In this document: piece by piece, positions 1,372 through 49,357 of the stretch | Layout: every line of letters starts with the position of its first letter | Position numbering within the stretch: position 1 is the first letter of the stretch | Virus record (IMG/VR): IMGVR_UViG_3300025418_001265 | Coordinates: 32,980 to 96,979 of that record | Reading direction: 5' to 3' (one strand) | Length of the DNA stretch: 64,000 nucleotides | Source of the DNA: a virus | Position numbers and translations under genes: made by a program | Notes under the pieces: model-generated | Seen by the model: the letters and a program-made list of their open reading frames with translations, nothing else | The model's database searches: none | What the model was told of the DNA's origin: nothing

Positions 1372-4253
1372 TATAATATAGATGATAAGGATTGCTTCAA
1401 TGTATATACTTCTGTTCTAAGTTCTTTTACAGCCTCAATAAGCACCGCTGTTAAGCGAGTATAATCAATACCTACGCATTCTTCTCCAACGCTTGTTGCA
1501 CTAGTTGATACTACATAAGGTAATATAGGTAATACATCTTCTGCAATAAGACCGATTTGATTAGTAGCACTAGTATCTATTGTACTATCATATGCTACAC
1601 CTGATAAAGAGTAAACCGTATTTAAAGAATTACCAATTAAACTGTTTAATGGTCGTATATTAGTTTTATATTTTCTAGATGATGTTGTATTGTACGATAC
1701 AGCTGTAACATTACCTGTACCGTCTACATAGAAGTTATTACCACCAGCATATACTGTGTGGCCGCCTATGCCTAGATAAACATCATTATAGAAACCTGCA
1801 ACAGCATTAGCTATAAGCCCGCCATTTAATGTAAATGCACCACCACCAATAGTACCTGACGAACCATTTATATAACCACTACCATCAATACCGTATCCAG
1901 TAGATGCAATTGCAAAACCTCCAGGATTAGCGTTTACCCCTGCAAAGTTTACATATGAATTAGTGTTTAAGGTTTGATTAGCACCGGGGCCAGCAGATCC
2001 TTGAGCGCCTTGAGCACCTTGGCTACCAGTACCACCAGAACCACCTGAAGAACCTTGAGCGCCTTGTGCACCGGTACCAGTAGCACCTTGTGCGCCTTGT
2101 GCACCGGTTGAACCTTTTGCACCTTGTGCTCCCTGAGCGCCAGATCCAGTAGCTCCTTGAGCGCCTTGTGGACCGGTACCACCAGTACCGCCTGTTGCAC
2201 CTTGAGCACCTTGCGGTCCAATACTACCGGTTGAACCTTTTGTACCTTGCGCACCTGTTGCACCTTGTGCGCCTTGCACTCCCGTAGAACCAGTTGCACC
2301 AGAGTAACCGGAATAACCTTGCGCTCCTGTGTTACCTGTTGAACCTTGAGCGCCGGTTGCACCTTGTGCACCGTTTATACCGGAATAACCGGATGGGCCT
2401 TGCGCTCCTGTGTTACCTGTTGAACCTTGAGCTCCAGTAGCTCCTTGCGCGCCTGTAGCTCCTTGTGCACCATTTACACCAGAATAACCGGAATAACCTT
2501 GTGAGCCTGCAGCACCCTGCGAACCCTGTGAACCTGTTGAACCTTGCGCTCCGGTAGCTCCTTGCGCGCCTGTCGAACCTTGACTACCGACCACTCCAGA
2601 GTAACCGGAATAACCTTGAGCGCCTTGTGCACCGGTAGAACCAGTTGCGCCTGTTGCTCCTTGAGAACCAGTAGCGCCTTGAGTACCGGCAGTACCTTGT
2701 GCGCCTTGAGGGCCTGTAAAACCGCTTATACCAGAAAAACCAGAATAACCAGAAGTGCCTTGATTACCAGTAAACCCTTGGTTACCTATAGAACCTTGTG
2801 CTCCTTGAGCACCTTGAGTACCAACAGTACCTGAGTAACCAGAATAGCCTTGAGAACCTGTAGCCCCTTGTGCGCCAGATGCACCTTGATAACCTATTAC
2901 ACCCTGAGCACCTAAACCACCCTGTGCACCGGTATTGCCTTGTGCACCAGTAGCGCCTTGAGCACCTTGAGCTCCTTGCGGGCCCGTGCCTTGCGGGCCG
3001 GTAGAGCCTTGAGCTCCTTGAGAACCTGTAGCTCCAGAATAACCAGAGTAACCTTGCGCGCCTTGTGGGCTGCCAGCTGCACCTTGCGGTCCTTGACCGC
3101 CTAAAATACCTTGTGCGCCTTGGGCGCCTTGAAAGCCTGAAAAACCAGATACGCCGCTGAAGCCGGTATAACCGCTTATACCGGTAGAGCCTTGAGCTCC
3201 CTGATTGCCTTGAAAACCATTAGAACCTTGTGCACCTTGTACGCCTGCAGAACCTGTAGAACCTTGTGCTCCTTGAGCACCCGTGGCCCCCTGAGCGCCT
3301 ATGCTACCAATACTACCTTGTGCACCTACTGATCCACTAAAACCAGAATAACCAGAAATACCAGAAGTACCTTGAGTACCAATAGCTCCCTGTGCACCTT
3401 GGGGTCCAGATGGACTACCTGCAGGTCCTTGGGGTCCTGGAGAACCACTATAACCACTATAACCAGAAATACCACTAAAACCACTAAAGCTACTATAGCC
3501 GCTATAACCAGAGATACCAGATTGACCGGATAAACCTATACCACTAAAACCTGATACACCACTAAAGCCCGATGCACCAGACAAGCCAGAATAACCTGAA
3601 GTACTAATACCACTATAACCGGATATACCACTAAAACCTGAACTACCGGTATCTCCTTTAATTTTACCTACATTAGTAAACCCATATAAACTACCAGGTG
3701 CAGATGAATTTGAATAAACCCATAAATCACCTGTATCCTCTGCAACAATACCGTCTCCTAAAGTAGGTGTTGGATCGATACCTGAGAAACCAGAAACTGA
3801 AGCTGTAGCAACAGAACCGATAATAGTTACTGATGTACCGTTTTTACCGGAAATACCAGACCAACCAGAAATACCGGACCAGCCTGAAGTACCTTGAGCG
3901 CCTTGCGCGCCATTTGAACCACTAAAACCAGAAAAACCTTGAGCGCCTTGAGCACCTGTTGCGCCTTGTGCTCCAGTACCACCCTGAGCACCTTGTGCAC
4001 CGTTAATACCATTGGTTCCGTTAGTACCATTAACCCCAGAGTAACCTGAATAACCTAAACCTTGAGGTCCTTGTGGTCCAGTAGCGCCACTATAGCCAGA
4101 ATAGCCTGAATAACCAGAATAACCTGACGTACCACCAGGAGCACCTTGTGAACCTGTAATACCTGGAAAACCAGAAAAACCACTAAAACCGGAATAACCT
4201 GAAGCAGCTGCTGCAGGTATCATTTGAATTTGATTGACAGTAGTTAGTGCCAT
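1371..4253 (-). CDS. Collagen-like (GAQ and SGY/SGF repeat) tail fibre with C-terminal S74 intramolecular chaperone
   Basis: Long Gly-X-Y runs; C-terminal YNTTSSRKYKTNI...QIGLIAEDV...IDYTRLTAVLIEAVKEL S74 signature. Confidence 0.85.
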   Translation of the reverse strand: MALTTVNQIQMIPAAAASGYSGFSGFSGFPGITGSQGAPGGTSGYSGYSGYSGYSGATGPQGPQGLGYSGYSGVNGTNGTNGINGAQGAQGGTGAQGATGAQGAQGFSGFSGSNGAQGAQGTSGWSGISGWSGISGKNGTSVTIIGSVATASVSGFSGIDPTPTLGDGIVAEDTGDLWVYSNSSAPGSLYGFTNVGKIKGDTGSSGFSGISGYSGISTSGYSGLSGASGFSGVSGFSGIGLSGQSGISGYSGYSSFSGFSGISGYSGYSGSPGPQGPAGSPSGPQGAQGAIGTQGTSGISGYSGFSGSVGAQGSIGSIGAQGATGAQGAQGSTGSAGVQGAQGSNGFQGNQGAQGSTGISGYTGFSGVSGFSGFQGAQGAQGILGGQGPQGAAGSPQGAQGYSGYSGATGSQGAQGSTGPQGTGPQGAQGAQGATGAQGNTGAQGGLGAQGVIGYQGASGAQGATGSQGYSGYSGTVGTQGAQGAQGSIGNQGFTGNQGTSGYSGFSGISGFTGPQGAQGTAGTQGATGSQGATGATGSTGAQGAQGYSGYSGVVGSQGSTGAQGATGAQGSTGSQGSQGAAGSQGYSGYSGVNGAQGATGAQGATGAQGSTGNTGAQGPSGYSGINGAQGATGAQGSTGNTGAQGYSGYSGATGSTGVQGAQGATGAQGTKGSTGSIGPQGAQGATGGTGGTGPQGAQGATGSGAQGAQGAKGSTGAQGAQGATGTGAQGAQGSSGGSGGTGSQGAQGAQGSAGPGANQTLNTNSYVNFAGVNANPGGFAIASTGYGIDGSGYINGSSGTIGGGAFTLNGGLIANAVAGFYNDVYLGIGGHTVYAGGNNFYVDGTGNVTAVSYNTTSSRKYKTNIRPLNSLIGNSLNTVYSLSGVAYDSTIDTSATNQIGLIAEDVLPILPYVVSTSATSVGEECVGIDYTRLTAVLIEAVKELRTEVYTLKQSLSSIL

Positions 4254-4254
4254 A

Positions 4255-5283
4255 TTATGAAGTTGGAGCTACAATGACTATTTCTGCACCAGCAGGCGGT
4301 ATACCTGAAAATTGTATTTGACTGTTTTGTACGCTAATTATATAAGCAGCTCCAGGTGTTTGTAACAAACCATCTATTGAAACTCTATACAAAGAGGCAT
4401 CAGTTTTGGTAATACCAGTTAAGGTAAATGTGGAACTAGCTCCATCTCCGGTATATACATATACATTGCTCATTGCTGTGTTATTACTTATAGTTGTGCC
4501 TACGAAACCAGAAACTCCGTAGCAAGGATTTAAGGTGTTTGCAGATTGCAAAGCACTTAATATTAAACCTAACAAATACTCAGAAGGCACTGCATATAAT
4601 GATGTTTCATAATCACTTGCACTAAAGCCTTCCGAAAACGTTGTGTATTGGTTAATATCTACGCTAGGGTCCCGATCAAAGTAATTAGCTGTATCGTACA
4701 GTTCTTCAATTTCTACACTAAAAGTATCCGTTATATCACTTAGTTTAGGAAGATACTGTAATAGATTACCGTTTGTAACAATTAAACCGGTATTGCCGGA
4801 ATCAGTTCTTTGGGTAAAAACACTGAGGATATAAGAGTAAAATAAACTCTCTAAATAACCATTAGTACCTAATAAGTTATATTTTAACTTGGAATAAACT
4901 ATGTTGCTCCTACGTTCAGCTAGGTAACGTGATACGTCTTTTAGTTTACGGGCATAGTATGTAACAGCTGCCTGTAAGTCTAAGTCATCGCTATAATTGA
5001 TAGCACTAAAAAATTGTTGTTCTTCAGGGTTACGAGTTGATAATCCAAGCTGTTTTAAGAAGTCTACATATAAACTCTTAACATACAAAAACATAGCGCC
5101 TGGAGTATTGGCCCTATTTTTATACCATTCTTTTAAGTACTTGTTATACTGCTCAATTTGAGCTTTATTATCTATATTAGTATTATTAGCTTTCCATTCC
5201 TGAAAACTGTACGGATTTCCTGTATCTGTTTCAGTAGTAAGAGTGGTGGGTTTAGCTAAAGACTGTATGTTGATAACAGGCAT
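4255..5283 (-). CDS. Virion structural protein with C-terminal TGDG...VSIDGLLQTPG beta-sandwich module
   Basis: 342-aa ORF; TAAGTA motif 6 nt upstream; C-terminal module typical of phage baseplate/fibre-attachment proteins. Confidence 0.6.
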   Translation of the reverse strand: MPVINIQSLAKPTTLTTETDTGNPYSFQEWKANNTNIDNKAQIEQYNKYLKEWYKNRANTPGAMFLYVKSLYVDFLKQLGLSTRNPEEQQFFSAINYSDDLDLQAAVTYYARKLKDVSRYLAERRSNIVYSKLKYNLLGTNGYLESLFYSYILSVFTQRTDSGNTGLIVTNGNLLQYLPKLSDITDTFSVEIEELYDTANYFDRDPSVDINQYTTFSEGFSASDYETSLYAVPSEYLLGLILSALQSANTLNPCYGVSGFVGTTISNNTAMSNVYVYTGDGASSTFTLTGITKTDASLYRVSIDGLLQTPGAAYIISVQNSQIQFSGIPPAGAEIVIVAPTS

Positions 5284-5558: not shown

Positions 5559-6632
5559 TTACAGTCCTAATTTTGCATTAAGAGCAGCAACCTGAGCCTG
5601 TAATGTCTTTACAGCTTCAACAAGTACCACTACAACACGGCTGTAATCGATACTTCTTGGATTACCGTCTGCAATTTGTACAACTGAAGGTAATACTGGG
5701 TAAACGTCTTCAGCTAAGAAACCAATTTCATTAGTTAAACTTGGATATGTAATGCTATCGTAGGTTACACCTGATAATTGTGAAATTACCAATGAAGCAT
5801 TAATTGAATTGTTTAATGGCTGAATGTTGGTCTTAACTGCACGTGTTGAAGTCGAGTTAAACGATGTTGCGTCGAATTCACCGGCAGATGTTAAAAATGC
5901 TAATGTTGTACCAGGGACGTTAGCCTGGAAGAATGTAACAACAGCATTATTTGCTGTAGCACCACCTGTACCGCCCCAAACTACTAATGTATTAACTGCA
6001 GCTGAAAGAGCCTGTGTATTAGCAGTACCGTTCGGTCCTACCTGATGGCTTATTGCAGAAATGTTACCACCGTTAGTAATATTAACGTTACCAGCAACCT
6101 GTAAAGGAGCGTTAGAAGTACCGCCAGTATTAATACCGATATAACCGGTTGTTGGGTTCTGGAAAATATTAGCAGCACTTAATGAACTTGCACCTATAAA
6201 TACTGCTAAAGCTCCGGAAGTGCCTGTACCAGCAAATGCACCAGAGAAGCCTGAATAACCAGAAGCACCTTGCGCGCCTGTAGAACCAGTAGCACCTTGA
6301 GCGCCTGCTGTACCTGTTGCACCTTGATTACCTTGAAAACCTTGAGCACCTTGTGCACCAGTTGCACCTGTAGCACCCTGAGCGCCGTTAGTACCGTTTG
6401 TACCTGAAAAACCTGAAGTACCAGTTGCGCCTTGAGCGCCAGCTGCACCCTGCGCGCCTTGAGCACCATTTGAACCAGTAGATCCTTTAACACCAGAGTA
6501 ACCAGAAATACCTTGAGCTCCTTGTGTTCCGGTAGCGCCTTGTGCGCCAGTTAAACCTGTAGCGCCTTGAGCTCCCTGAGCGCCGTAGCCTGAATATCCT
6601 GAATATGCGTTTGCTGGATTAAAATATGCCAT
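5559..6632 (-). CDS. Short collagen-like fibre with S74 chaperone
   Basis: GAQGAT repeats; [13 protein letters not shown]...IGFLAEDV...[15 protein letters not shown]. Confidence 0.85.
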
Positions 6633-6715
6633 AGTAGTATTGGTTGTTAATTATTTAGTAAAAAATACTACAGTTTATATGGGTTTTGAGTTAAAAATAA
6701 ACGGATATGTCAAAA

Positions 6716-6848
6716 CTAAAAAACAGAAGCAAATCCACCTTCAAAACCGTGAGAATGTTGTTGCGCTCCAAACTTTCTAATATAACGTAAACCAAATTCA
6801 GCTTTTTCTGTTAACTCATATGCAAATCCAACTTTATAAGTTTTTCAT
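6716..6848 (-). pseudogene. Remnant of an outer-membrane beta-barrel (porin) gene: only the start and last ~3 strands remain
   Basis: ATG AAA AAC TTA TAA overlaps the permease TGA (ATGA). In the permease frame, 6844-6716 reads KTYKVGFAYELTEKAEFGLRYIRKFGAQQHSHGFEGGFASVF-TAG: alternating amphipathic strands with a terminal Phe. Confidence 0.6.
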
Positions 6849-7912
6849 TTAATAAAAGTAAAAATAGCTGCAGTTAATAAAAGTAAAAATGCCCAGGTAC
6901 CTAATGCTTTATAATATGTGGATAGAGGGGTACCAAAGTAACGTTTACCAATCATAACACATTCGTGCATTGGAGTTAAAAGATAACCACAATAATCTAA
7001 TGCAAAAAACCATAGTAGATACTGTCTACCGAATACTGTTGTAGCTAATACTGTTAGTGCAGCAAACTTACCGTCACTACCCATACTAAAGCTAGCAGCA
7101 AATAGTAACATACTAATAATGTACATACCACTAAACGTGTGCGGATTTAATCCCCAGCTTCTTATAGCGTATTCAATCCAGACTCTGTGCTCTTGCATAT
7201 AACCAGAAGTAAAAAATATAACACCGATTAATGCAATAGTAGTCCAGTTAACATAACTACTAATCTTTTTCCAACTATATGTCTTAGTAATATATAGATA
7301 ATAAGCTAGTAGAGCACCGAAGATAGGAAACACTAACTCTGGGCCTTCTCCTCCAAGTAGCATATACGTAAGAACAGCAGCAATAAACGGTATTACGTTT
7401 TTGATAAAATTACCAGCGCCAAGATTTTCTTGAGGTGTAATCTCTATTTCGTCTTCTTTAATAACAAAGAATAAATAGTAAAAAATAAATGCAGCACTAA
7501 CAGCTATCAACGGCCATAACATTTTTAACCATACTGCATATGTAATACCAAACGCAGCCATTGGTAGTATTACTGGTTTCTCAATAGGAGACCACATATA
7601 ATAGTGATGGGTGGTAAGGAAGTCGATAGGTCCAAGTTTTTGACGTGCTTTTACATCTTTCTCCTTTGAAGCTGTTGCTGTATCTAATATACCTGCACTA
7701 ACTGTACTTCTACCTTCTAGGGGCAATATACCACTAATAAGACTAATAACAGCAATAACTAACTTGTTACTTTTAAGTTTAAATTTTAACCATCCATACG
7801 TACACCCGAATAGGTTATGCTCTTTGGCAATACCCGCTACTACCATAATAGTAAAGAGTACAAAGAGATAGATTTCGTCTCCGAGATAAAAACGGTCTAA
7901 AAAGACACTCAT
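6845..7912 (-). CDS. Multi-pass inner-membrane permease (ion-transporter/CitMHS-like)
   Basis: About 10 hydrophobic segments; GILPLEGRSTVSAG and THHYYMWSPIEK motifs; C-terminal LTPMHEC. Confidence 0.65.
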   Translation of the reverse strand: MSVFLDRFYLGDEIYLFVLFTIMVVAGIAKEHNLFGCTYGWLKFKLKSNKLVIAVISLISGILPLEGRSTVSAGILDTATASKEKDVKARQKLGPIDFLTTHHYYMWSPIEKPVILPMAAFGITYAVWLKMLWPLIAVSAAFIFYYLFFVIKEDEIEITPQENLGAGNFIKNVIPFIAAVLTYMLLGGEGPELVFPIFGALLAYYLYITKTYSWKKISSYVNWTTIALIGVIFFTSGYMQEHRVWIEYAIRSWGLNPHTFSGMYIISMLLFAASFSMGSDGKFAALTVLATTVFGRQYLLWFFALDYCGYLLTPMHECVMIGKRYFGTPLSTYYKALGTWAFLLLLTAAIFTFIK

Positions 7913-7926
7913 AGCTATATTTTATA

Positions 7927-9561
7927 TTATTTCTTTACAATAGCCAGGTAAAAACCATTCCACCACATATCAGGATCTTCTAAATCATTTAATAATATCT
8001 TATCGTATATTACTTCTAAACTAGCATCAGCAATACCGCGTTTAGCACCATTAACTACCCCATCAAAATTTGCATCATCAAATATAAGAACAGCTTCATC
8101 TACTAGCTTATCTGCAAAGTACATTATAGCTTGATAGTTAGCTTCTTCACTATGATCTGCATCATAAAAGAAAAAGTCTATATTACCAATATCAGATTTT
8201 TCGACTTGTAAGAAGTGACTGTTAAATACCTTTAAAGTATTATTACCTTTATACTTTTTAGCATTCTCAATAAACTTTTCTTTCGAAGATTCAAGATCTA
8301 CCTTACCATTAGCAGATTTGGTTTGTTCTTGCCAATGATCGACTGCATATGCCTTGAGATTATTATCTTTAATGGTAGCGCAAAATGTACCACCATTTAA
8401 CACACCTACTTCGAGGTAACCTGTCGATATTTTACCAATACCGTTCAATAGCTGTTTCATTTTGTCTGAAGTAATACCCTCTACAGTATCACCTATCGGT
8501 TGGTTAACAGTGTCTATTAGTAACTGAGTTACCTTTTCAACTTTCTTATTGTTTTTATTACCCTTGGCTCTCCATACTTTTGTACAGTAATCACAATCCC
8601 AACAGTTAAACTTACACGTCTTAATCTTTTGACGCCAAGTGTTTATAGGTTTTTCTATTAAGTTCGTGTCTTCTATATAAGGCTCGAAACCACTGAACAG
8701 TATTTCTTCTTTATTGGCAAACCTACGAATAATGTCCATTGTCTCATTAAGACGGTTACTATTCTCTCTACCGTGCATTTTAATCGTATCAATACCTAGC
8801 TCTAAAAACTCTAACCAATCTTCTCTCCAAGGTGGAAAGTTAGCATTAGTTAACTGTACAGCTGAATCTTGAGTCTGCCATTTAGGGCAACTAACTCTAC
8901 TAATAGGATCTGTAAAGTACTGATTGCCTGTTGTTCTAGTATTATTAAAGTGGTAATGCTCATCCATTACAGGGCACCCGCCTACACAACCTTCATTAGC
9001 TAATAAAGATAGCTTGATACCGTATTTGTCTTTAACTCTTTTTATCTCTCTAAGTCTATCGTGATCTCTCATAAGAACACGATCAAGGTTAACATAGTTG
9101 AACCCGGCCTGAGCTAAAGCAGCTACTTCTCTTGGTTCTTTAACCGCTCTTAAAATAGTGTTCTTAACAAATAGTTCTGGAAAGTTATGTTTAACCTGTT
9201 TAGTTAACATCCAGTGTGTATGGGGTAGGGTACAAGACCTTATACCAGCATCATATAAAGGTTTAAAGTTTTTTATCCAAGTCTCTAAGTTCTTTTGACT
9301 AGCTCGTACTGATATATTATTAAATGTAGCAGATACAGTTATACCTGTTTCTTTTTGTACATATAAAGCTGTTTCAATAGCAAACTGATGTGCATCTTTT
9401 TGTACAAACACATCACCCATTGCATCTTGCAAGAAAGGATCAATACGACAAGTAAAATATATGTCGTATATATAATCTTTATACTCTTTACAGAACTCTA
9501 AAAACGTGTAGAACTGTTGTTCTGTAAGCTTAGGGTTAAGAGGTATACTAAATATCTTCAC
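7927..9561 (-). CDS. Peptidase U32-family Fe-S protein fused to a class I SAM methyltransferase (Methyltransf_24-like)
   Basis: LDRVLMRD, LLANEGCVGGCP, IKMHGRE and CKFNCWDCDYC in the N-terminal part; YLEVGVLNGGT, AVDHW, FFYDADH and LIFDD in the C-terminal part. Confidence 0.8.
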   Translation of the reverse strand: MKIFSIPLNPKLTEQQFYTFLEFCKEYKDYIYDIYFTCRIDPFLQDAMGDVFVQKDAHQFAIETALYVQKETGITVSATFNNISVRASQKNLETWIKNFKPLYDAGIRSCTLPHTHWMLTKQVKHNFPELFVKNTILRAVKEPREVAALAQAGFNYVNLDRVLMRDHDRLREIKRVKDKYGIKLSLLANEGCVGGCPVMDEHYHFNNTRTTGNQYFTDPISRVSCPKWQTQDSAVQLTNANFPPWREDWLEFLELGIDTIKMHGRENSNRLNETMDIIRRFANKEEILFSGFEPYIEDTNLIEKPINTWRQKIKTCKFNCWDCDYCTKVWRAKGNKNNKKVEKVTQLLIDTVNQPIGDTVEGITSDKMKQLLNGIGKISTGYLEVGVLNGGTFCATIKDNNLKAYAVDHWQEQTKSANGKVDLESSKEKFIENAKKYKGNNTLKVFNSHFLQVEKSDIGNIDFFFYDADHSEEANYQAIMYFADKLVDEAVLIFDDANFDGVVNGAKRGIADASLEVIYDKILLNDLEDPDMWWNGFYLAIVKK

Positions 9562-10258
9562 TCTTGGTCTTGGCTTCGATCTTTAACTGATCTTTAGCAA
9601 CATCATCAATATAAGCTAAATCGGTTCCTTTTGAACCTATTAACTGCTTCATTGTTGCTTGACCAATAGCATCGATACCTTTACCTAACACGCCGTTGTA
9701 TTTAATAGCTAACTGAAGTGTTTCTTTAACATCTGTTAAAGGCATCATTAAAATCGAATCTAAGTTACCTTGACCGATACGACCGATAGTATTTAAGTCC
9801 ATTGCAGCCTGTTTAGCCATTCTTGTAATCCAGTACTCGCGTTCTAGCTCTTCATTGTTGTCTTTATATTTCTCTAAACTCTGCATATCTGGACACATTG
9901 ATCTTACCATATCAGAAAACATATCAATTTCATTTTGACACATTTTCTCTTTCTTGTCATACATATGAATGTCCCAAACTGCTTGCTCTAAGTCTACCTG
10001 TAATATTTGTTTTTTAAGATCATCAAACTCATTATCGATATCTCTTTGTAACATTTGTTTTTCGATAATACGCTTTTTACGCTGACGTTGAACCTGTTTT
10101 AACATACCGTTACGATTGTCAATCTCTAATAAAGCTTGACGCACTCTGCGGTAATCTGTTACCTGAGAATTTACAACAAAATAACGAGCCTGAAAATCGG
10201 ACATACCGATAGAGTTTTCGTTTTCATCGACAAATTTAATAATATCTTCGTTTTCCAT
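9548..10258 (-). CDS. Coiled-coil hypothetical protein of the U32 module
   Basis: MSDFQARYFVVNSQVTDYRRVRQALLE...EREYWITRMAKQA; start moved to ATG 10258, adjacent to the upstream stop. Confidence 0.7.
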   Translation of the reverse strand: MENEDIIKFVDENENSIGMSDFQARYFVVNSQVTDYRRVRQALLEIDNRNGMLKQVQRQRKKRIIEKQMLQRDIDNEFDDLKKQILQVDLEQAVWDIHMYDKKEKMCQNEIDMFSDMVRSMCPDMQSLEKYKDNNEELEREYWITRMAKQAAMDLNTIGRIGQGNLDSILMMPLTDVKETLQLAIKYNGVLGKGIDAIGQATMKQLIGSKGTDLAYIDDVAKDQLKIEAKTKSEDI

Positions 10259-10259
10259 A

Positions 10260-10892
10260 TTAGAATTGGTATCCAAATTTTACTTTTTCTTTTCTAGCGT
10301 TTCTAGTATCATCCCAAAGTCCTTTTCTACTAGCAAGATCCTTTGTCATTTCGTGACCAAGTACCGTTTCTCGTGCTTCAACGTGATCATCAATAGAAGA
10401 TAAACTATCTGCCTGTGTTAACAATTCGGCGTGTTTATCTGCGTCATAAGCAGGTCTTTCAGTGCTATCAAGATTAGGTAAACCTAAACGTCTATCTTCC
10501 ATTTCTTGATCAATGTGTAACTTATGAGCTTTCTTCATTAGTGATATAGTAGCTGCTGTCATATCATCAGTCAAGTAAATTTTTGTTTTTCTGCTACCTT
10601 TTGCTAACTCATCAGCATCCGGTTCTAATCCTTCTAGATCGGAATATGCTTTACGGTAACCACGAGTTTCAGCATAAAACTTATGAGCAGACAGTGCTTC
10701 AACTTCAGTCAACTCTACCATAGGTATTGTCTTTGGTATGCCTTCAAAAGGATGTGCTTCGTAAGCACTTAATGTTGCAATAGCAGTATCGGTTGCAAGG
10801 CTGACAATATTAAAATTATCAATACCTGTTATAACGGTCATACCATCAATATTAGGTATGTATCGGAAAAATTTAGTAAGATAATAATTCAT
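10260..10892 (-). CDS. Hypothetical protein of the U32 module
   Basis: ORF track 10260..10931; non-overlapping ATG at 10892 (MNYYLTK) preferred. Confidence 0.65.
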   Translation of the reverse strand: MNYYLTKFFRYIPNIDGMTVITGIDNFNIVSLATDTAIATLSAYEAHPFEGIPKTIPMVELTEVEALSAHKFYAETRGYRKAYSDLEGLEPDADELAKGSRKTKIYLTDDMTAATISLMKKAHKLHIDQEMEDRRLGLPNLDSTERPAYDADKHAELLTQADSLSSIDDHVEARETVLGHEMTKDLASRKGLWDDTRNARKEKVKFGYQF

Positions 10893-10905
10893 ATTCGTTA
10901 AATAG

Positions 10906-11976
10906 TTACATTGATGTGCCTGGAAGTCCACCTAATAAAGAACAACTACCTGTACCGCAACCGCCAGAAGAAGCACCTCCGTGTCCTTTAGGTTGAGTAG
11001 TGGAACCCATTGATACACAAGAATCTGTTGTATAATATGTTTTAGTAGAGTTATTAGTTTGTGCACCACCGTTATAAGAACCTAACGTATAGCCCCAGTC
11101 TTGTCCTATTTCACAGTTTTCTTCCCCGCAAGATTCTGGACGGCTGAATGAGGAGATTTGAGATCTTGTTGTATCGTTAAATTTGTAATATGTTGAACTA
11201 CCATTATACGTACCTGAAGAGTTATACCCGTAACCTACTTTACTTGATAGACCTTTCGGTTGTCCGTCAGTACTAGAAGCAAAAGACCAGGTACCAGTAG
11301 TCCAGGTTTCATTTGAAAAGTTTAAAGAAGCTGATGAACTGTTTGCTCCAACTGTACCGTAAAACTGACCGAAGAACCCGCTAAGACCGCCTGCAGTACC
11401 ACCAGAACAACTTGATCCGCCAACATTACCGGAGTTAAGAGTTGTATCTGATACGGTATTAAGTTTATCAGTGCTAGAGTTACCACCACCGGTAATATAT
11501 ATGTAGGTTAATGTAGGGCTCATAAGCGTTTTACAATCTGTCCTGCTTACAGTCATATTTGCATTACCTGTATATCCTATTAACGACTCTGTAGTCATAT
11601 TCATTCTAGAAACAGTAGTTGAACTACCTTGAAATGAACCGCTATCGTTAAACACATAAGAATGATAATCACTAAACCCACAATCCATATAGTTTGCAAC
11701 GTTATCCATCATATCACCGAGATTGGTGGTAACGTCAGTACTATGTACAGTCCTGTTAGTGTTTCTCCAAAGTGAACTATTTTGATATCCACAGTGCATA
11801 TACCCACGAGTGTAAAGTGTACGGTATAAAAAGCTGGTAAACCAGGCTGATATAGCATTGGTAAACGTGTTTGGAGTCATTACCCATTCGTAGCCATCAA
11901 AAACATAAAGATAGCCATTGGCAAACCCTTCGTATATTGTACCTGCTGGATGTGTTGATGGAAAACTTAAAGGCAT
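10906..11976 (-). CDS. Kelch/beta-propeller-like virion protein, paralog 2
   Basis: N-terminal LSFP..P..G..Y....YVFDGYEW module; repeated GY/YITGG blades; clear paralog of 11989..13050; TAAATA 5 nt upstream. Confidence 0.6.
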   Translation of the reverse strand: MPLSFPSTHPAGTIYEGFANGYLYVFDGYEWVMTPNTFTNAISAWFTSFLYRTLYTRGYMHCGYQNSSLWRNTNRTVHSTDVTTNLGDMMDNVANYMDCGFSDYHSYVFNDSGSFQGSSTTVSRMNMTTESLIGYTGNANMTVSRTDCKTLMSPTLTYIYITGGGNSSTDKLNTVSDTTLNSGNVGGSSCSGGTAGGLSGFFGQFYGTVGANSSSASLNFSNETWTTGTWSFASSTDGQPKGLSSKVGYGYNSSGTYNGSSTYYKFNDTTRSQISSFSRPESCGEENCEIGQDWGYTLGSYNGGAQTNNSTKTYYTTDSCVSMGSTTQPKGHGGASSGGCGTGSCSLLGGLPGTSM

Positions 11977-11988
11977 AAAAATATTTAT

Positions 11989-13050
11989 TTAACCACCTAA
12001 TGAACCACCTAATAAAGTTACACTACCAGAACCGCAACTACCGGATGACATTCCACCGTGGCCTTTAGGTTGAGTAGTGGAACCCATACCTGAACAGGTA
12101 TCTGTGGTGTAGTATATCTTTTGAGTGTTATTTGTTTGGTTACTACCGTTATAGGAACCAAGGGCATATCCCCAATCTTGCCCTACTTGCATATTTTCTT
12201 CTCCGCAAGATTCAGGACGACTAAAACTTGATACTGAAGTACCGTTAGTATCGTTAAACTTATATAATGTTGACGAACCAGCATATGAACCGGTTGAGTT
12301 GTATCCAAATCCCCATTTACTAGATAAACCTTTCGGTTGACCGTCTGTATCTAAACTGTAGTTGATGACTGTTATATAAGTTTCAGTACTCCAAGCAAAA
12401 CAACTAGTGCCAGAGTTATTACTACTAACCCAGCCATAGTACTGACCCCAAAAACCGCTAAGACCACCTGCTGTTTGACCTGAGTTACCACCGCTAATAA
12501 GACTTAATGACAACATTGTATCTGTAATAGTGCAAAATTTATCTGTATTAGAAGAGTTACCACCAGTAATATATATTGAAGTGAGTCCTGCGTTCATTAA
12601 CGCTTTACAGTTTGCACGAGACTGTTTTAAATCTCTATTACTATTATGAGTTCTTAAAGATTCAGTCGTCATACTCATTGATGACGTGTAAGAAGAAGTA
12701 CCATTAACTGCACCAGAGTCATTAAACACATACGTGTTATAATCACTAAACCCACCGTCAATGTATGATGCACCATTATCCATCATATCACCTAAGTTAG
12801 TGGTTGTATCGGTTAAATGTATAGTTCTATTAGTATTACGCCAAGGACTACCACCTTGATAACCGCAATGTACATAACCACGAGTATACACGGTACGATA
12901 TAAAAATGAGTTTTCAGCTGTAAACCCAGCCATACCTAACCTACCTGTTGTATTCCAGGTATAACCGTCATAAGTGTACACCCACCCTATAGGAGAAATG
13001 TACCTTTGTGCACTTGAAGGTGAAGTTGGAAAACTTAGCTGGTTTGCCAT
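11989..13050 (-). CDS. Kelch/beta-propeller-like virion protein, paralog 1
   Basis: Shares RGYxHCGYQ, NLGDMMD, TDGQPKGLSSK, RPESCGEEN, GQDWGY and QPKGHGG with 10906..11976. Confidence 0.6.
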   Translation of the reverse strand: MANQLSFPTSPSSAQRYISPIGWVYTYDGYTWNTTGRLGMAGFTAENSFLYRTVYTRGYVHCGYQGGSPWRNTNRTIHLTDTTTNLGDMMDNGASYIDGGFSDYNTYVFNDSGAVNGTSSYTSSMSMTTESLRTHNSNRDLKQSRANCKALMNAGLTSIYITGGNSSNTDKFCTITDTMLSLSLISGGNSGQTAGGLSGFWGQYYGWVSSNNSGTSCFAWSTETYITVINYSLDTDGQPKGLSSKWGFGYNSTGSYAGSSTLYKFNDTNGTSVSSFSRPESCGEENMQVGQDWGYALGSYNGSNQTNNTQKIYYTTDTCSGMGSTTQPKGHGGMSSGSCGSGSVTLLGGSLGG

Positions 13051-13053
13051 ACT

Positions 13054-14235
13054 TTAGGCCTTTGCTTTAATGAGTGCTTTAAGTTCCTCTATCTGAGCTT
13101 GCTGTTCTTTTATGGCCTCAACAAGTAAAGGAATCATTCTTTCATATTGTATAGTTATATAGTTTTCACCGCTCTTAGAATATGTTGAACCATCTTCATT
13201 GGTTACAGTATCGAACGGTGCTAACTTAATAACTTCAGGTAAAACTACCTGTACTTCCTGAGCTATTAAACCTACTTCAGGAGTTTCAGATGAATAACCG
13301 TAACGTTGAGCAGTTTCATTAGCAGTGTAGTTCACACCATTAAGTAATAAAACTTTTGACAACGCATTTAAAATATTGCCTTTAATATCTTTAAGTCGTT
13401 TATCAGAATAATTAGCAGTAATACTACTAGTAGCTGTAATAGCACCTGTTACGTTTAACGCTCCAGATATACCAACGTTACCAGTTATGTTACCACCAGA
13501 AGTTTTAAATATAGTAGAAGGATCAACATATGGCACTGCAACTACCCAAGAACTAGAAGACGATATCCAAATGTTTAAGGCACCAGTATCTGTGTTCCAC
13601 CAAAGATTACCATTACCCGCGGCTGTAGGTACACCACTTACTGAACCACTTTGTACATACACAGTAGTGTTAGCGCCAAGCTGGCCTGAAAAACCAGAAG
13701 TACCGGTTGCGCCTTGAGCGCCTGATCCTGTAGCACCTTGTGCGCCAGTGGAACCTGTAGCACCTTGTGCGCCATTTGAACCGTTTGTTCCAGCAGCGCC
13801 TTGAGCGCCGGTTTGACCGTTTTGGCCAGCTGAACCTTGCGCGCCTTGAGCACCAGTAACACCCTGTGCTCCGTTTGAACCAGCTGCTCCTTGAGCGCCA
13901 GCTGCACCCTGAGCACCATTAGATCCAGCTGCACCCTGAGCACCATTAGATCCAGCTGCACCCTGAGCACCGGTTGCACCTTGAGCACCGTTTATGCCTG
14001 AATATCCTGAAGCTCCTTGCGCACCATTAGATCCAACAATACCGTTAGTGCCTTGAGCACCGGTTGCACCTTGTGCACCGTTTATACCTGAATACCCTGA
14101 AGTTCCTTGTGCGCCAGTAGCGCCCTGTGCACCTAGAGTGCCGTTTGTACCTTGAGCTCCCTGAGCTCCTTGTGCACCTAGAGCCCCAGAAAATCCTGAA
14201 GCTCCTTGCATACTATATGTAAACGGTGTTGCCAT
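13054..14235 (-). CDS. Collagen-like fibre with S74 chaperone
   Basis: GAQGAA repeats; GNLWWNTDTG module; ANYSDKRLK...VGLIAQEV...IQYERMIPLLVEAIKEQ. Confidence 0.85.
   Translation of the reverse strand: MATPFTYSMQGASGFSGALGAQGAQGAQGTNGTLGAQGATGAQGTSGYSGINGAQGATGAQGTNGIVGSNGAQGASGYSGINGAQGATGAQGAAGSNGAQGAAGSNGAQGAAGAQGAAGSNGAQGVTGAQGAQGSAGQNGQTGAQGAAGTNGSNGAQGATGSTGAQGATGSGAQGATGTSGFSGQLGANTTVYVQSGSVSGVPTAAGNGNLWWNTDTGALNIWISSSSSWVVAVPYVDPSTIFKTSGGNITGNVGISGALNVTGAITATSSITANYSDKRLKDIKGNILNALSKVLLLNGVNYTANETAQRYGYSSETPEVGLIAQEVQVVLPEVIKLAPFDTVTNEDGSTYSKSGENYITIQYERMIPLLVEAIKEQQAQIEELKALIKAKA
13898..13971. repeat. Perfect 27-bp tandem repeat (2.7 copies) inside fibre gene
   Basis: ccagctgcaccctgagcaccattagat x2 plus 20 nt. 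Confidence 0.85.
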
Positions 14236-32843: not shown

Positions 32844-33365
32844 ATGTCACAAACAATACAAGACTTCTATAGAGTAGCACAGCAAAGAGACTTTGCTCGT
32901 GACTATATGTTGCGCGTAGTCTCTCTCGGTAATAATATTCTCAACGAAGATGATTTCGTTTATATTACTACAGCTACTCTACCTACTAGAGATATTCAAA
33001 ATCAAACCGCTACTTATATGGGTCTTGATTTTAATATTCCTGGTACAGTAAAGTATACAGGTAGTAATGCTTGGAACGTTGAATTCCGCGCTGATAAAGC
33101 TAGCTTGATTCGTCAAAAGCTTGAAGCTTGGCAAAGAGGCGAAATATTCAATGACCAAACAAGTACAGGTAATCTCGCAGTTCCTGGTCCTGGTTCAGTT
33201 ATTCAACTTCATCAAATTGATGATAAATTGAATGTACTTAACGTATATAACTTATTCGGATCTTACATTCAAAAGCTCGGTGATATTAAATATGATATTA
33301 CTGGTACAGGTGCTCCATTAAAGTTTACAGCTACATTAGCTTATCAGTATTGGTCACAAGGTTAA
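32844..33365 (+). CDS. gp19: Major tail tube protein (gp19-like)
   Basis: Follows sheath; TATLP...YMG...IPG...W.VEF...LAYQYW pattern; followed by terminator. Confidence 0.8.
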   Translation: MSQTIQDFYRVAQQRDFARDYMLRVVSLGNNILNEDDFVYITTATLPTRDIQNQTATYMGLDFNIPGTVKYTGSNAWNVEFRADKASLIRQKLEAWQRGEIFNDQTSTGNLAVPGPGSVIQLHQIDDKLNVLNVYNLFGSYIQKLGDIKYDITGTGAPLKFTATLAYQYWSQG

Positions 33366-48372: not shown

Positions 48373-48447
48373 TGGTACCCCTACGCGGAATCGAACCGCG
48401 ATTAGCGAAATGAAAATCCGATGTCCTAACCGTTAGACGATAGGGGC
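48373..48447 (-). tRNA. tRNA-Glu (UUC)
   Basis: GCCCCTA acceptor; anticodon loop TTTTCAT; T arm CGCGG-TTCGATT-CCGCG; encoded CCA. Confidence 0.9.
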
Positions 48448-49282: not shown

Positions 49283-49357
49283 TGGAGCGGAGTGACGGGC
49301 TCGAACCGTCGACATCCTCGTTGGCAACGAGATATTCTACCACTGAATTAACCCCGC
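49283..49357 (-). tRNA. tRNA-Gly (GCC)
   Basis: GCGGGGT acceptor; TCTCG-TTGCCAA-CGAGG anticodon arm; GACGG-TTCGAGC-CCGTC T arm; TCCA end. Confidence 0.92.

Follow-up and report, generated by a model that had tools for sequence, protein, structure and literature searches.

Gene content and layout

The window, meaning the whole 64,000-nt stretch of DNA that was analysed (positions 32,980 to 96,979 of IMG/VR record IMGVR_UViG_3300025418_001265), derives from a T4-like cyanomyovirus, a virus of cyanobacteria. Positions 6716-13050 hold six intact genes and one gene remnant, all on the minus strand and tightly packed, with intergenic gaps or overlaps of 3-14 nt. This layout upholds an earlier sequence-only reading of the same DNA, made by a model, in which a co-directional module was placed within the fibre region. 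The S74 fibres that it reported on both sides were also recovered: upstream lies a collagen-like tail fibre of 393 aa with a C-terminal S74 intramolecular chaperone domain (13054-14235, minus strand; Pfam Collagen, E 6e-26, Peptidase_S74, E 2.2e-10, and many PHROG tail-fibre families), and downstream a second collagen-like S74 fibre of 357 aa (5559-6632, minus strand; Collagen, E 7.5e-18, Peptidase_S74, E 4.3e-7).

Propellers and small proteins

The first two genes of the cassette encode propeller 1 (11989-13050, minus strand, 353 aa; T4-GC351 or phrog_1417 'sericin-like' family, E 6e-70) and propeller 2 (10906-11976, minus strand, 356 aa; phrog_1417, E 1e-65), and homologs of propeller 1 were found in 123 cyanophage records. 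The two proteins are 59% identical (E 4e-135) and are six-bladed Kelch-like beta-propellers according to a structure model of moderate confidence (pLDDT 68), which Foldseek matched to Keap1, KLHL and designed SAKe structures at E 1e-12 to 4e-14 with TM on target of 0.75-0.79; the earlier description of two propeller-like paralogs is thereby sustained. The propellers matched no Pfam family, Kelch repeat models included, and their sole sequence signal for Kelch was a weak PDB match to a designed Kelch protein (E 0.026). The paralogs had also been credited with shared His/Cys metal ligands. When conservation was checked across homologs, the cysteines of HCGY, ESCGEEN and the final CG varied freely, and the residues found invariant were GEEN, the His of KGH and other polar or aromatic positions; the proposed metal sites fail because the cysteines vary.

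Two small proteins follow. The T4-GC352-like protein (10260-10931, minus strand, 223 aa as listed; phrog_1604, E 5.6e-6) probably starts at the ATG at 10892, and its Atlas record begins at residue 14. Iterative searching tied it to Syn33_043 and P-HM2_099, which group in turn with 209-229-aa genes of two bacterial MAG loci and with genes of locus L012 and the L054 lineage. The small charged T4-GC353 protein (9548-10276, minus strand, 242 aa as listed; phrog_1409, E 2e-56) probably starts at the ATG at 10258, and its Atlas record begins at residue 7. Its homologs adjoin the U32-like gene in cyanophages, in Ralstonia jumbo phage RP12 (ORF140) and in the MAG loci (L032 and L033).

Fusion enzyme

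The fifth gene (7927-9561, minus strand; T4-GC354, phrog_1458) encodes a 544-aa protein with a U32-like TIM-barrel N-domain (residues 1-345, 8527-9561; stand-alone form phrog_36869) and an O-methyltransferase C-domain (residues about 346-544, 7927-8526). The best solved match to the N-domain model (pLDDT 92.8) was the U32 protein Mk0906 (PDB 5d88; Foldseek E 1.7e-8, TM on target 0.72), against TM of 0.54 or less for other barrels. A VIA comparison with 48,161 representative chains put 5d88 at the top, with 224 of 247 residues aligned at rmsd 3.1 (Z 17.0); the best 50 of those chains, down to Z 12.6, included no further TIM barrel. Against a thin U32 profile, hhalign gave a probability of 42% (E 2.6e-4) in local mode with three E. 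coli U32 proteins, and against a similarly thin profile of eight U32 proteins it gave 86% (E 6e-7, 287 columns) in global mode. The alignment was collinear with UbiU, UbiV, TrhP and five others and set the U32 KIEGR motif opposite the near-invariant K261, G264 and R265. Pfam PF01136 (Peptidase U32) matched neither the protein, the N-domain alone, 79 homologs nor a six-frame search of the phage record; the N-domain matched no other Pfam family, and NCBIfam likewise calls no U32 domain. The U32 assignment thus comes from fold and profile-profile evidence, not from a family HMM: the structure model makes the N-domain U32-like by fold, and it is probably a distant member of the U32 iron-sulfur TIM-barrel superfamily. 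The family comprises about 2000 clusters at 90% identity in public data, or 333 at 50%.

The motifs NEGCxxGC, SC and CxxxCxxCxxC noted earlier are present, and the conservation of the U32 cysteines, on which that reading had staked itself, holds: of 79 diverse homologs, 78-79 retain C192, C196, C225, C316, C320, C323 and C326. Near-invariant polar residues of the barrel are D33, N81, K133, R161, R165, E190, E201, H202, D258, K261 and R265. The CxxxC spacing differs from that of the three E. coli U32 proteins (Cx6C in UbiU and TrhP), and hhalign placed only C192 opposite a U32 cysteine; catalysis could therefore differ.

The C-domain is a cation-dependent class I SAM O-methyltransferase of Rossmann-type fold (Pfam Methyltransf_24, E 1.5e-9), with a conserved SAM-binding glycine motif and, fitting a metal site, a conserved acidic residue in a YD stretch and a DDxN motif. 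VIA gave Z of 15-17 against the cation-dependent O-methyltransferases TomG, COMT, SafC and Rv0187, and 14.5-14.9 against TrmR. The U32-methyltransferase fusion first read from the letters is thus retained, its N-terminal half as U32-like by fold with Mk0906 as best match and Pfam silent. Most members of the U32-like enzyme family lack the methyltransferase.

Membrane protein and barrel remnant

A polytopic membrane protein (6845-7912, minus strand, 355 aa; phrog_14035) matched Pfam DUF401 (PF04165) at 31.1 bits against a cut-off of 24, over profile positions 62-384 of 393, and at 27.3 bits in the six-frame search of the phage record. It also gave a weak CitMHS hint in Pfam, and reached 36.5 bits against TIGR00529 (AF0261 family), far under the 378.4 cut-off. 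The permease motifs THHYY and PMHEC were correctly read, and T101, H102, H103, Y105, P314, H316 and C318 are invariant in 8 relatives. The gene adjoins a hydroxylase-type gene in several lineages and is rare among isolate cyanophages carrying the enzyme (12 records vs 126).

The porin remnant reported earlier is real, being a deleted copy of a gene for a putative signal-peptide-bearing outer-membrane beta-barrel (6716-6848, minus strand). Its start ATG overlaps the DUF401 stop and is followed after four codons by a stop, and the last 42 codons are open in another frame (6716-6844). They represent the 3' end of the gene, of which sister contig L007 has an intact copy (9065-9643), and DNA alignment of the two showed one internal deletion, about 446 bp by length difference, in a 192-aa barrel gene. 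The L007 translation has an N-terminal hydrophobic leader and a terminal Phe, with no Pfam match; the L010 copy scored 25.6 bits against OMP_b-brl (PF13505, E 1.6e-5), under the 28.7 cut-off. A barrel homolog lies directly 3' of DUF401 in 18 of 23 related viral loci, so that the membrane protein and barrel pair is real in relatives; the barrel gene was not found in marine isolate S-H25 or in RP12. In this phage it is destroyed and so dispensable.

Recurrence of the cassette

The four upstream families correspond to T4-GC351-354, cyanophage clusters labelled 'hypothetical' that occur in 123-126 isolate genomes, and P-HM2, Syn33 and S-H25 have the same gene order as here. As the sequence-only reading anticipated, homologs are co-located in other phages. 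A viral lineage (L052-L071) carries three propellers, GC353, GC352, a radical SAM gene, the U32-like gene, a separate methyltransferase, one uncharacterised gene and DUF401, and the unrelated giant phage RP12 carries, from ORF142 to ORF138, a propeller (identified by fold, TM on target 0.74), ORF141 (no known family), a GC353-like protein, a U32-like protein and DUF401. In the two MAG loci the propeller domain is C-terminal in proteins of roughly 1100 aa with lectin-like or beta-propeller domains, followed by GC353, GC352, U32-like and DUF401 genes, and the L033 cassette adjoins tail collar and sheath genes. In locus L012 the place of the U32-like gene, with GC352 on one side and DUF401 on the other, is taken by a 2OG-Fe(II) oxygenase; L010 and L011 have a 2OG oxygenase immediately 5' of DUF401 and the barrel; and in L014-L023 the fusion gene is separated from DUF401 by tryptophan halogenases and as many as five 2OG-Fe(II) oxygenases in tandem. 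A halogenase is also found near the U32-like gene in L005, L012 and L045, the last a divergent U32-like clade without propeller, GC352, GC353 or DUF401 genes. The cassette is a genuine unit whose genes are inherited together. Because unrelated cargo gathers in the hypervariable fibre regions of phages, adjacency alone overstates function.

Expression timing

The late timing that had been proposed agrees with published data, which place the P-HM2 homologs PHM2_098-101 among the late genes (PMC5082946, supplementary file 3). In the same table the auxiliary gene mazG is of mid class, and the cassette homologs share the late classes with neighbouring large or hypothetical genes (PMC5082946). The TAAATA motifs to which the cassette had been linked are present; as a 6-mer in AT-rich DNA they carry no statistical weight. 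The full late box TATAAATA was not enriched in the window (8 found vs 13 expected), and none fell within the cassette.

Proposed function and alternatives

We tentatively read the locus, at a probability of about 0.4, as a conserved late phage cassette tied to the tail-fibre region that would carry out Fe-S-dependent hydroxylation and then O-methylation of a propeller or fibre-tip target. Its components are one to three Kelch-like propellers, the GC352 and GC353 accessory proteins, the U32-like enzyme and the DUF401 inner-membrane protein. To these, cyanophages add a catechol-type metal-dependent O-methyltransferase, fused to the U32-like domain or in an adjoining gene, while viruses of this clade have a small outer-membrane barrel as well, which the present phage has lost by deletion. 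In bacteria the propeller domain forms the C-terminal tip of the roughly 1100-aa protein, in one case among tail genes. The putative Fe-S enzyme may hydroxylate an sp2 (aromatic-type) carbon without O2, as proposed for RlhA, TrhP and UbiU/V, and the methyltransferase would then cap the new hydroxyl. The substrate could be the propeller, the fibre-tip protein or something bound to either; that it is a virion component is suggested by gene order. The two small proteins may act as adaptors or chaperones, and DUF401 and the barrel may serve in transport.

Characterised U32 proteins are proposed to be prephenate-dependent hydroxylases with 4Fe-4S clusters (PMC10990095). The 2OG oxygenase in the U32-like slot of L012 lends indirect support to a hydroxylase role. 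In Bacillus subtilis, trmR shares an operon with the U32 genes trhP1 and trhP2, and the set makes ho5U and then mo5U (PMC6599085); the fusion architecture echoes this order of hydroxylation and O-methylation. Annotation does not bear out the suggestion, also made in the earlier reading, that the propellers are virion proteins: structural-protein notes in GenBank based on S-SM1 do not extend to GC351-354, and RP12 ORF138-142 carry no virion-protein annotation. Also counting against the preferred reading are the missing PF01136 match and deviant cysteine spacing of the N-domain, the L045 clade that has the U32-like gene but none of its partners, the cargo-gathering nature of fibre regions and the scarcity of DUF401 among isolates. 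A more specific and rather improbable form of the same idea is that, in several unrelated phage lineages, a new U32 branch acts on protein, giving a Kelch-like propeller that binds the receptor its hydroxy- or methoxy-aromatic residues, or else a quinone-like cofactor, and is served by the two adaptors and the membrane protein and barrel pair.

The strongest competitor, itself unlikely, is a small-molecule tailoring or trafficking island in which the enzymes make or modify a low-molecular-weight aromatic compound or lipid (e.g. a quinone), DUF401 and the barrel move the product or co-substrate through the envelope, and the propellers bind it or merely neighbour the other genes. The halogenases and tandem oxygenases of L014-L023, the further halogenases of L005, L012 and L045, the radical SAM gene of the L054 lineage, the weak citrate-transporter hint and the constant position of DUF401 immediately 3' of a hydroxylase-type gene would all suit such an island, as would the UbiU/V precedent, in which the substrate is a membrane-bound phenol and O-methylation comes next. 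However, the enzyme is accompanied by the propeller, GC352 and GC353 even in lineages that are very far apart, which is unexpected for an independent metabolic gene, and no core scaffold-building enzyme accompanies them; late expression, unlike that of the mid-class mazG, the loss of the barrel here and the absence of DUF401 from most isolates also count against it.

Dedicated chaperone genes commonly come after phage fibre genes, and the order seen here, with a fibre-like protein first and small proteins next, would fit non-catalytic assembly factors. The U32-like protein, GC352 and GC353 would then fold or attach the propeller fibre tip, and the cysteine clusters would be structural (Zn or Fe-S), the CxxxCxxCxxC tail being weakly zinc-finger-like. 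We regard this as very unlikely, since the near-invariant polar barrel residues resemble an active site, and the methyltransferase fusion or pairing and the replacement by a 2OG oxygenase argue for chemistry.

More doubtful still is RNA modification, in which the fusion would be a viral TrhP and TrmR analogue making 5-methoxyuridine, or a base related to it, in the tRNA or rRNA of host or phage and so tuning late translation. The two domains have their counterparts in the B. subtilis trmR-trhP2-trhP1 operon, the structural matches to the methyltransferase include TrmR, and JGI names one homolog 'O-methyltransferase YrrM'; but general catechol and sugar O-methyltransferases score equally or better, the methyltransferase is missing from most of the family, and an RNA enzyme would hardly be expected to be obligately linked with a membrane protein, a propeller and fibre genes. 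The window encodes no tRNAs other than Glu(UUC) and Gly(GCC), which we take not to be xo5U-type species.

Least probable is the original proposal that porin and permease import a metal or substrate late in infection for loading onto propeller His/Cys sites: the frequent DUF401 and barrel pair, the invariant His and Cys of DUF401 and the invariant His and GEEN of the propellers speak for it, but nothing shows import, the propeller cysteines vary, no metal-binding family was matched, the barrel is destroyed here and not found in S-H25 or RP12, and few isolates carry DUF401.

Exchange of the U32-like enzyme for a 2OG oxygenase suggests a function that is required regardless of which oxygen chemistry serves it. 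Should the receptor-binding tip be the target, the cassette would matter for host range in the most abundant phototroph-virus systems of oceans and lakes. To our knowledge, characterised U32 substrates are all RNA bases or a quinone precursor, with no proteins among them; if the phage branch does modify the propeller, it would provide the first U32 protein substrate and a new class of virion post-translational modification. T4-GC351-354, hypothetical since 2010, now have folds, an enzyme class and defined partners, and the reach of the U32 superfamily is extended to viruses and to a branch invisible to Pfam.

Comparison with known systems

The same families in the same order were described as T4-GC351-354 by Sullivan et al. 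2010 (PMC3037559) and are held as PHROGs 1417, 1604, 1409, 1458, 36869 and 14035, listed as hypothetical or 'sericin-like'; added here are the folds, the enzyme class, the DUF401 and barrel link and the link to jumbo phages and bacteria. The propellers share the six-bladed fold of Kelch-type beta-propellers, and some Kelch-like proteins of jumbo phages carry structural annotation, but the phage proteins here have no Pfam Kelch match, have invariant motifs of their own (GEEN, KGH and QPKGLSSK) and are always followed by GC352, GC353 and enzyme genes. The membrane protein passes the DUF401 threshold across nearly its full length but falls far short of TIGR00529, and its gene is flanked by a hydroxylase-type gene on the 5' side and by that of a small outer-membrane barrel on the 3' side. 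The C-domain resembles COMT/CCoAOMT, TomG, SafC and TrmR/YrrM in fold, SAM glycine motif and acidic and DDxN motifs, but falls in Pfam Methyltransf_24 rather than Methyltransf_3 and is fused to the U32-like domain, or is a separate gene in one lineage. With the U32 Fe-S proteins RlhA, TrhP/TrhP1-P2, UbiU-UbiV and Mk0906, the N-domain shares its sole outstanding fold match, a collinear alignment of thin profiles with the K..GR motif, a cysteine-rich loop after a late barrel strand and a coupling to O-methylation comparable to trmR-trhP and ubiquinone synthesis; it differs in its CxxxC and distal Cys, its extra invariant CxxxCxxCxxC tail and the lack of a PF01136 match, and in that the phage genes are late-expressed, lie amid fibre genes and are linked to a propeller, two small proteins and DUF401.

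Genomic setting and expression of the cassette

The window was assigned to a T4-like cyanomyovirus by ORF map, composition and family scans; its source record is a 97-kb IMG/VR fragment with a completeness estimate of 46%. All seven cassette elements lay where the sequence-only reading had placed them, on the minus strand at 6716-13050, in the order two propellers (family T4-GC351), a 223-aa GC352-like protein, a 242-aa GC353 protein, a 544-aa fusion protein (T4-GC354), a 355-aa DUF401 protein and a 42-codon remnant. Megablast of the cassette region against phages returned no match. By tblastn, the 544-aa protein matched 126 phage records, each at <60% identity (123 Synechococcus/Prochlorococcus phages and 3 Ralstonia phage records), and propeller homologs were found in 123 cyanophage records. 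The homologs in phages P-HM2 and Syn33 carry the annotation 'T4-LIKE GC 351-354', being listed as one 'sericin 1 precursor-like protein' and three hypothetical proteins; they keep the gene order of the window and adjoin tail-fibre genes. No function is given for these clusters in Sullivan et al. 2010 (PMC3037559). In Prochlorococcus phage P-HM2, genes PHM2_098 to PHM2_101 fall in the late class in light and dark infections alike (PMC5082946, supplementary file 3). The TAAATA motifs read as preceding the cassette genes were present but carried no statistical weight; promoter and terminator scans gave counts at chance, and the full late box, TATAAATA, was not enriched in the window.

Elsewhere in the window, tRNA-Glu(UUC) and tRNA-Gly(GCC) genes were located on the minus strand at 48373-48447 and 49283-49357. 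Positions 2001-4000 reached 51% GC, against about 35-41% in the rest, and overlap the long collagen-repeat part of a 960-aa S74 fibre. A 342-aa protein at 4255-5283 (minus strand), with no Pfam or PHROG match, is kept after the fibre in the related loci L005 and L007 (the latter a sister contig) and shows a domain that recurs in the N-terminal portion of the Syn33 tail fibre and in a 601-aa ORF of locus L021.

The fusion protein

Searches of sequence libraries with the fusion protein returned Methyltransf_24 alone (residues 383-496), and the N-domain drew neither U32 nor any other family from Pfam or NCBIfam, even with relaxed thresholds. In the PDB, searches by sequence and by profile went no further than designed TIM barrels and a zinc finger, at E >0.04. 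A library-wide phmmer search resolved the enzyme family into 333 clusters at 50% identity, mostly stand-alone proteins of 330-450 aa, with the methyltransferase restricted to the cyanophage branch; none of 79 diverse members matched Pfam U32.

A model of the fusion protein built on the 79-member alignment was very confident (pLDDT 92.8). The top Foldseek match of residues 1-271 was the U32 protein Mk0906 (PDB 5d88; E 1.7e-8, TM on target 0.72), the remaining TIM barrels reaching a TM on target of <=0.54. The same chain also ranked first of 48,161 representative chains in a comparison made without Foldseek (Z 17.0, rmsd 3.1 Å, 224/247 residues), and no second barrel fold occurred among the N-domain's top 50, the last of which scored Z 12.6. 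Profile-profile alignment to UbiU, UbiV and TrhP of E. coli and five PF01136 proteins was collinear over 287 columns (86%, E 6e-7) and brought the U32 KIEGR motif onto the near-invariant K261, G264 and R265; a local-mode comparison in which the U32 side comprised three sequences only was weaker (42%). C192, C196, C225 and the CxxxCxxCxxC block C316-C326 were retained in 78-79 of the 79 members, and a group of polar residues in the barrel was conserved as well. Because of the fold rank, the collinear profile alignment and the conserved cysteines, the N-domain is treated as a putative distant branch of the U32 superfamily that had not been modelled before. The U32 identity assigned from sequence alone held at the level of fold; the domain falls outside the Pfam U32 family as defined.

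Residues 349-544 matched the cation-dependent O-methyltransferases TomG, COMT, SafC, Rv0187 and TrmR (Z 15-17), with the SAM motif and the acidic/DDxN motifs conserved.

U32 proteins were formerly labelled collagenases, and the U32 protease label goes back to old, doubtful assignments. A collagenase role on the flanking collagen-like fibres was set aside, since relatives keep the propeller and small proteins with the enzyme and not the fibres.

Propellers and small proteins

The two propellers are 59% identical to one another. Their AlphaFold model was of moderate confidence (pLDDT 68) and was grouped by Foldseek with six-bladed Kelch domains; relaxed-threshold searches of Pfam and NCBIfam assigned the propellers to neither Kelch nor any other family, and the two small proteins to none. 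Alignment of 30 propeller family members showed GEEN, the His of KGH, QPKGLSSK and many aromatic residues to be invariant. A regex search for an N-terminal docking motif common to the propellers and other window proteins returned the two propellers only. The ESM Atlas gave no usable match to either small protein. Public records of the small proteins (9548-10276 and 10260-10931, minus strand) start at internal ATGs, at residue 7 and residue 14, and the TTG and GTG codons given as starts probably lie too far 5'; with the internal starts most of the apparent overlaps vanish.

Conservation of gene order

A synteny survey, proposed in the sequence-only reading as a check, found the cassette genes co-located in close relatives, in a second viral lineage, in Ralstonia jumbo phage RP12 and in two MAG loci. 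Gene order in the close relatives (L005, L007, L008 and L020) was that of the window. The second lineage (L052-L071) has three propellers, GC353, GC352, a radical SAM gene and a stand-alone U32-like gene, followed by a separate overlapping methyltransferase gene, one unknown gene and DUF401. The radical SAM gene encodes 333 aa and overlaps the start of the U32-like gene (L054:5997-6998 and 19 sister loci); in the L054 lineage the opposite strand nearby carries glycosyltransferase and epimerase genes. In RP12, ORF140 is GC353-like, ORF139 is U32-like (42% identity to the window N-domain, E 3e-77) and ORF138, which overlaps ORF139, is DUF401; a 292-aa RP12 protein, taken from its length to be ORF142, matched the propeller in structure (TM on target 0.74). 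The neighbours differ at L045, a locus of a divergent U32-like clade, where an S74 fibre, glycine-rich proteins and a halogenase were found.

The bacterial loci came from a Leptospirales MAG (L032, on a 6.4-Mb contig) and a Pseudomonadales MAG (L033). Both carry GC353-like, GC352-like, U32-like and DUF401 genes behind proteins of ~1100 aa whose C-terminal 300 residues show homology with the propeller (31% over 178 residues by BLASTP; 262 columns in a profile alignment; 270-280 bits with jackhmmer), and in L033 the set adjoins tail-collar and sheath genes. Among 401 genomes sampled from one bacterial phylum, the stand-alone enzyme occurred in the source MAG only, and owing to this rarity the bacterial copies are treated as borne by phages or tail-like elements and not as a cellular pathway. 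A partial second U32-like copy (L044, G002:C188:1704-1940), 84% identical across residues 259-337, lies on another contig of the Pseudomonadales MAG.

In the related locus L012 the order is two propellers, tryptophan halogenase, GC353, GC352, 2OG-Fe(II) oxygenase and DUF401, the oxygenase standing in the position of the U32-like gene; L010 and L011 have a 2OG oxygenase immediately ahead of DUF401 and the barrel. This apparent swap between two hydroxylase classes provides the best indirect support for the putative hydroxylase role. Tryptophan halogenases and up to five tandem 2OG-Fe(II) oxygenases occupy the slot between fusion and DUF401 genes, or stand beside the U32-like gene, in several viral lineages (L005:10390-12437; L012:1366-2742; L014-L023; L045:4777-6399). 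The fibre-region slot is suggestive of a variable 'tailoring enzyme' island.

DUF401 and the barrel remnant

The 355-aa protein scored above the Pfam DUF401 threshold, and its invariant motifs include THH.Y.WSP.EK and P.H.C. DUF401 was found in only 12 records of isolates, and in several loci it lay 5-8 kb from the enzyme or was not detected nearby. The 42-codon frame after its stop, read as a porin remnant, proved to be the 3' part of a predicted small-barrel gene that is intact in L007 (192 aa; the translation shows a hydrophobic leader at the N terminus, and its last residue is Phe). DNA alignment showed one internal deletion in the window, about 446 bp by length difference, leaving an ATG, four codons and a stop. 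A tblastn search of the remnant against phages gave no match, and L007 alone explains it. Small-barrel homologs lie directly 3' of DUF401 in 18 of 23 related viral loci, one scoring slightly under the OMP_b-brl threshold. Given the intact L007 gene, these 18 loci and the deletion, the alignments indicate a DUF401-barrel pair genuine in the clade and lost in the window phage.

The slot between DUF401 and the S74 fibre (window 6633-6844; L005:9069-12495; L007:9065-9708) is a swap site, holding the deleted barrel in the window, the intact gene in L007, and in L005 a glycine-rich 333-aa protein, a small ORF, a halogenase and a 2OG-oxygenase-like gene. Near the pair in L010 are genes for a full-length Hsp70/DnaK-type protein, a class I/II aminotransferase and a calcineurin-like phosphoesterase (11266-13203, 2628-3887 and 4373-5197, as listed).

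Proposed function and relation to known systems

That the cassette is real, conserved and, in its P-HM2 homologs, late-expressed is settled, as is its content of a U32-like, predicted Fe-S, enzyme coupled to an O-methyltransferase, on the strength of models and alignments. U32 proteins are proposed to be prephenate-dependent, O2-independent hydroxylases with 4Fe-4S clusters (PMC10990095). In B. subtilis the COMT-like TrmR, encoded in one operon with trhP1 and trhP2, both of them U32 genes, methylates the ho5U made by TrhP1/TrhP2 (PMC6599085). From this proposal and this operon comes the logic of the domain pair, and the best-supported inference is that the U32-like domain would hydroxylate an aromatic-type carbon, the same site then being O-methylated, on a target linked to the propeller or to the tip of the fibre; GC352 and GC353 may serve as adaptors.

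The main rival is small-molecule tailoring with envelope trafficking, which is favoured by neighbouring genes for halogenases, 2OG oxygenases and a radical SAM enzyme and by the DUF401-barrel pair. Metal loading is less likely; the propeller cysteines proposed as metal ligands were variable in the 30-member alignment. RNA modification and purely structural roles are likewise less likely than hydroxylation followed by O-methylation.

In line with the sequence-only reading, full-text searches returned no account of a U32-like enzyme, the U32-methyltransferase fusion or the cassette in phages. The component folds are already known; what is new is the U32-family branch, the fusion and the partnership of genes. 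In its pairing of a U32-type enzyme with a COMT-like methyltransferase, the fusion resembles the trmR/trhP1/trhP2 operon of B. subtilis.
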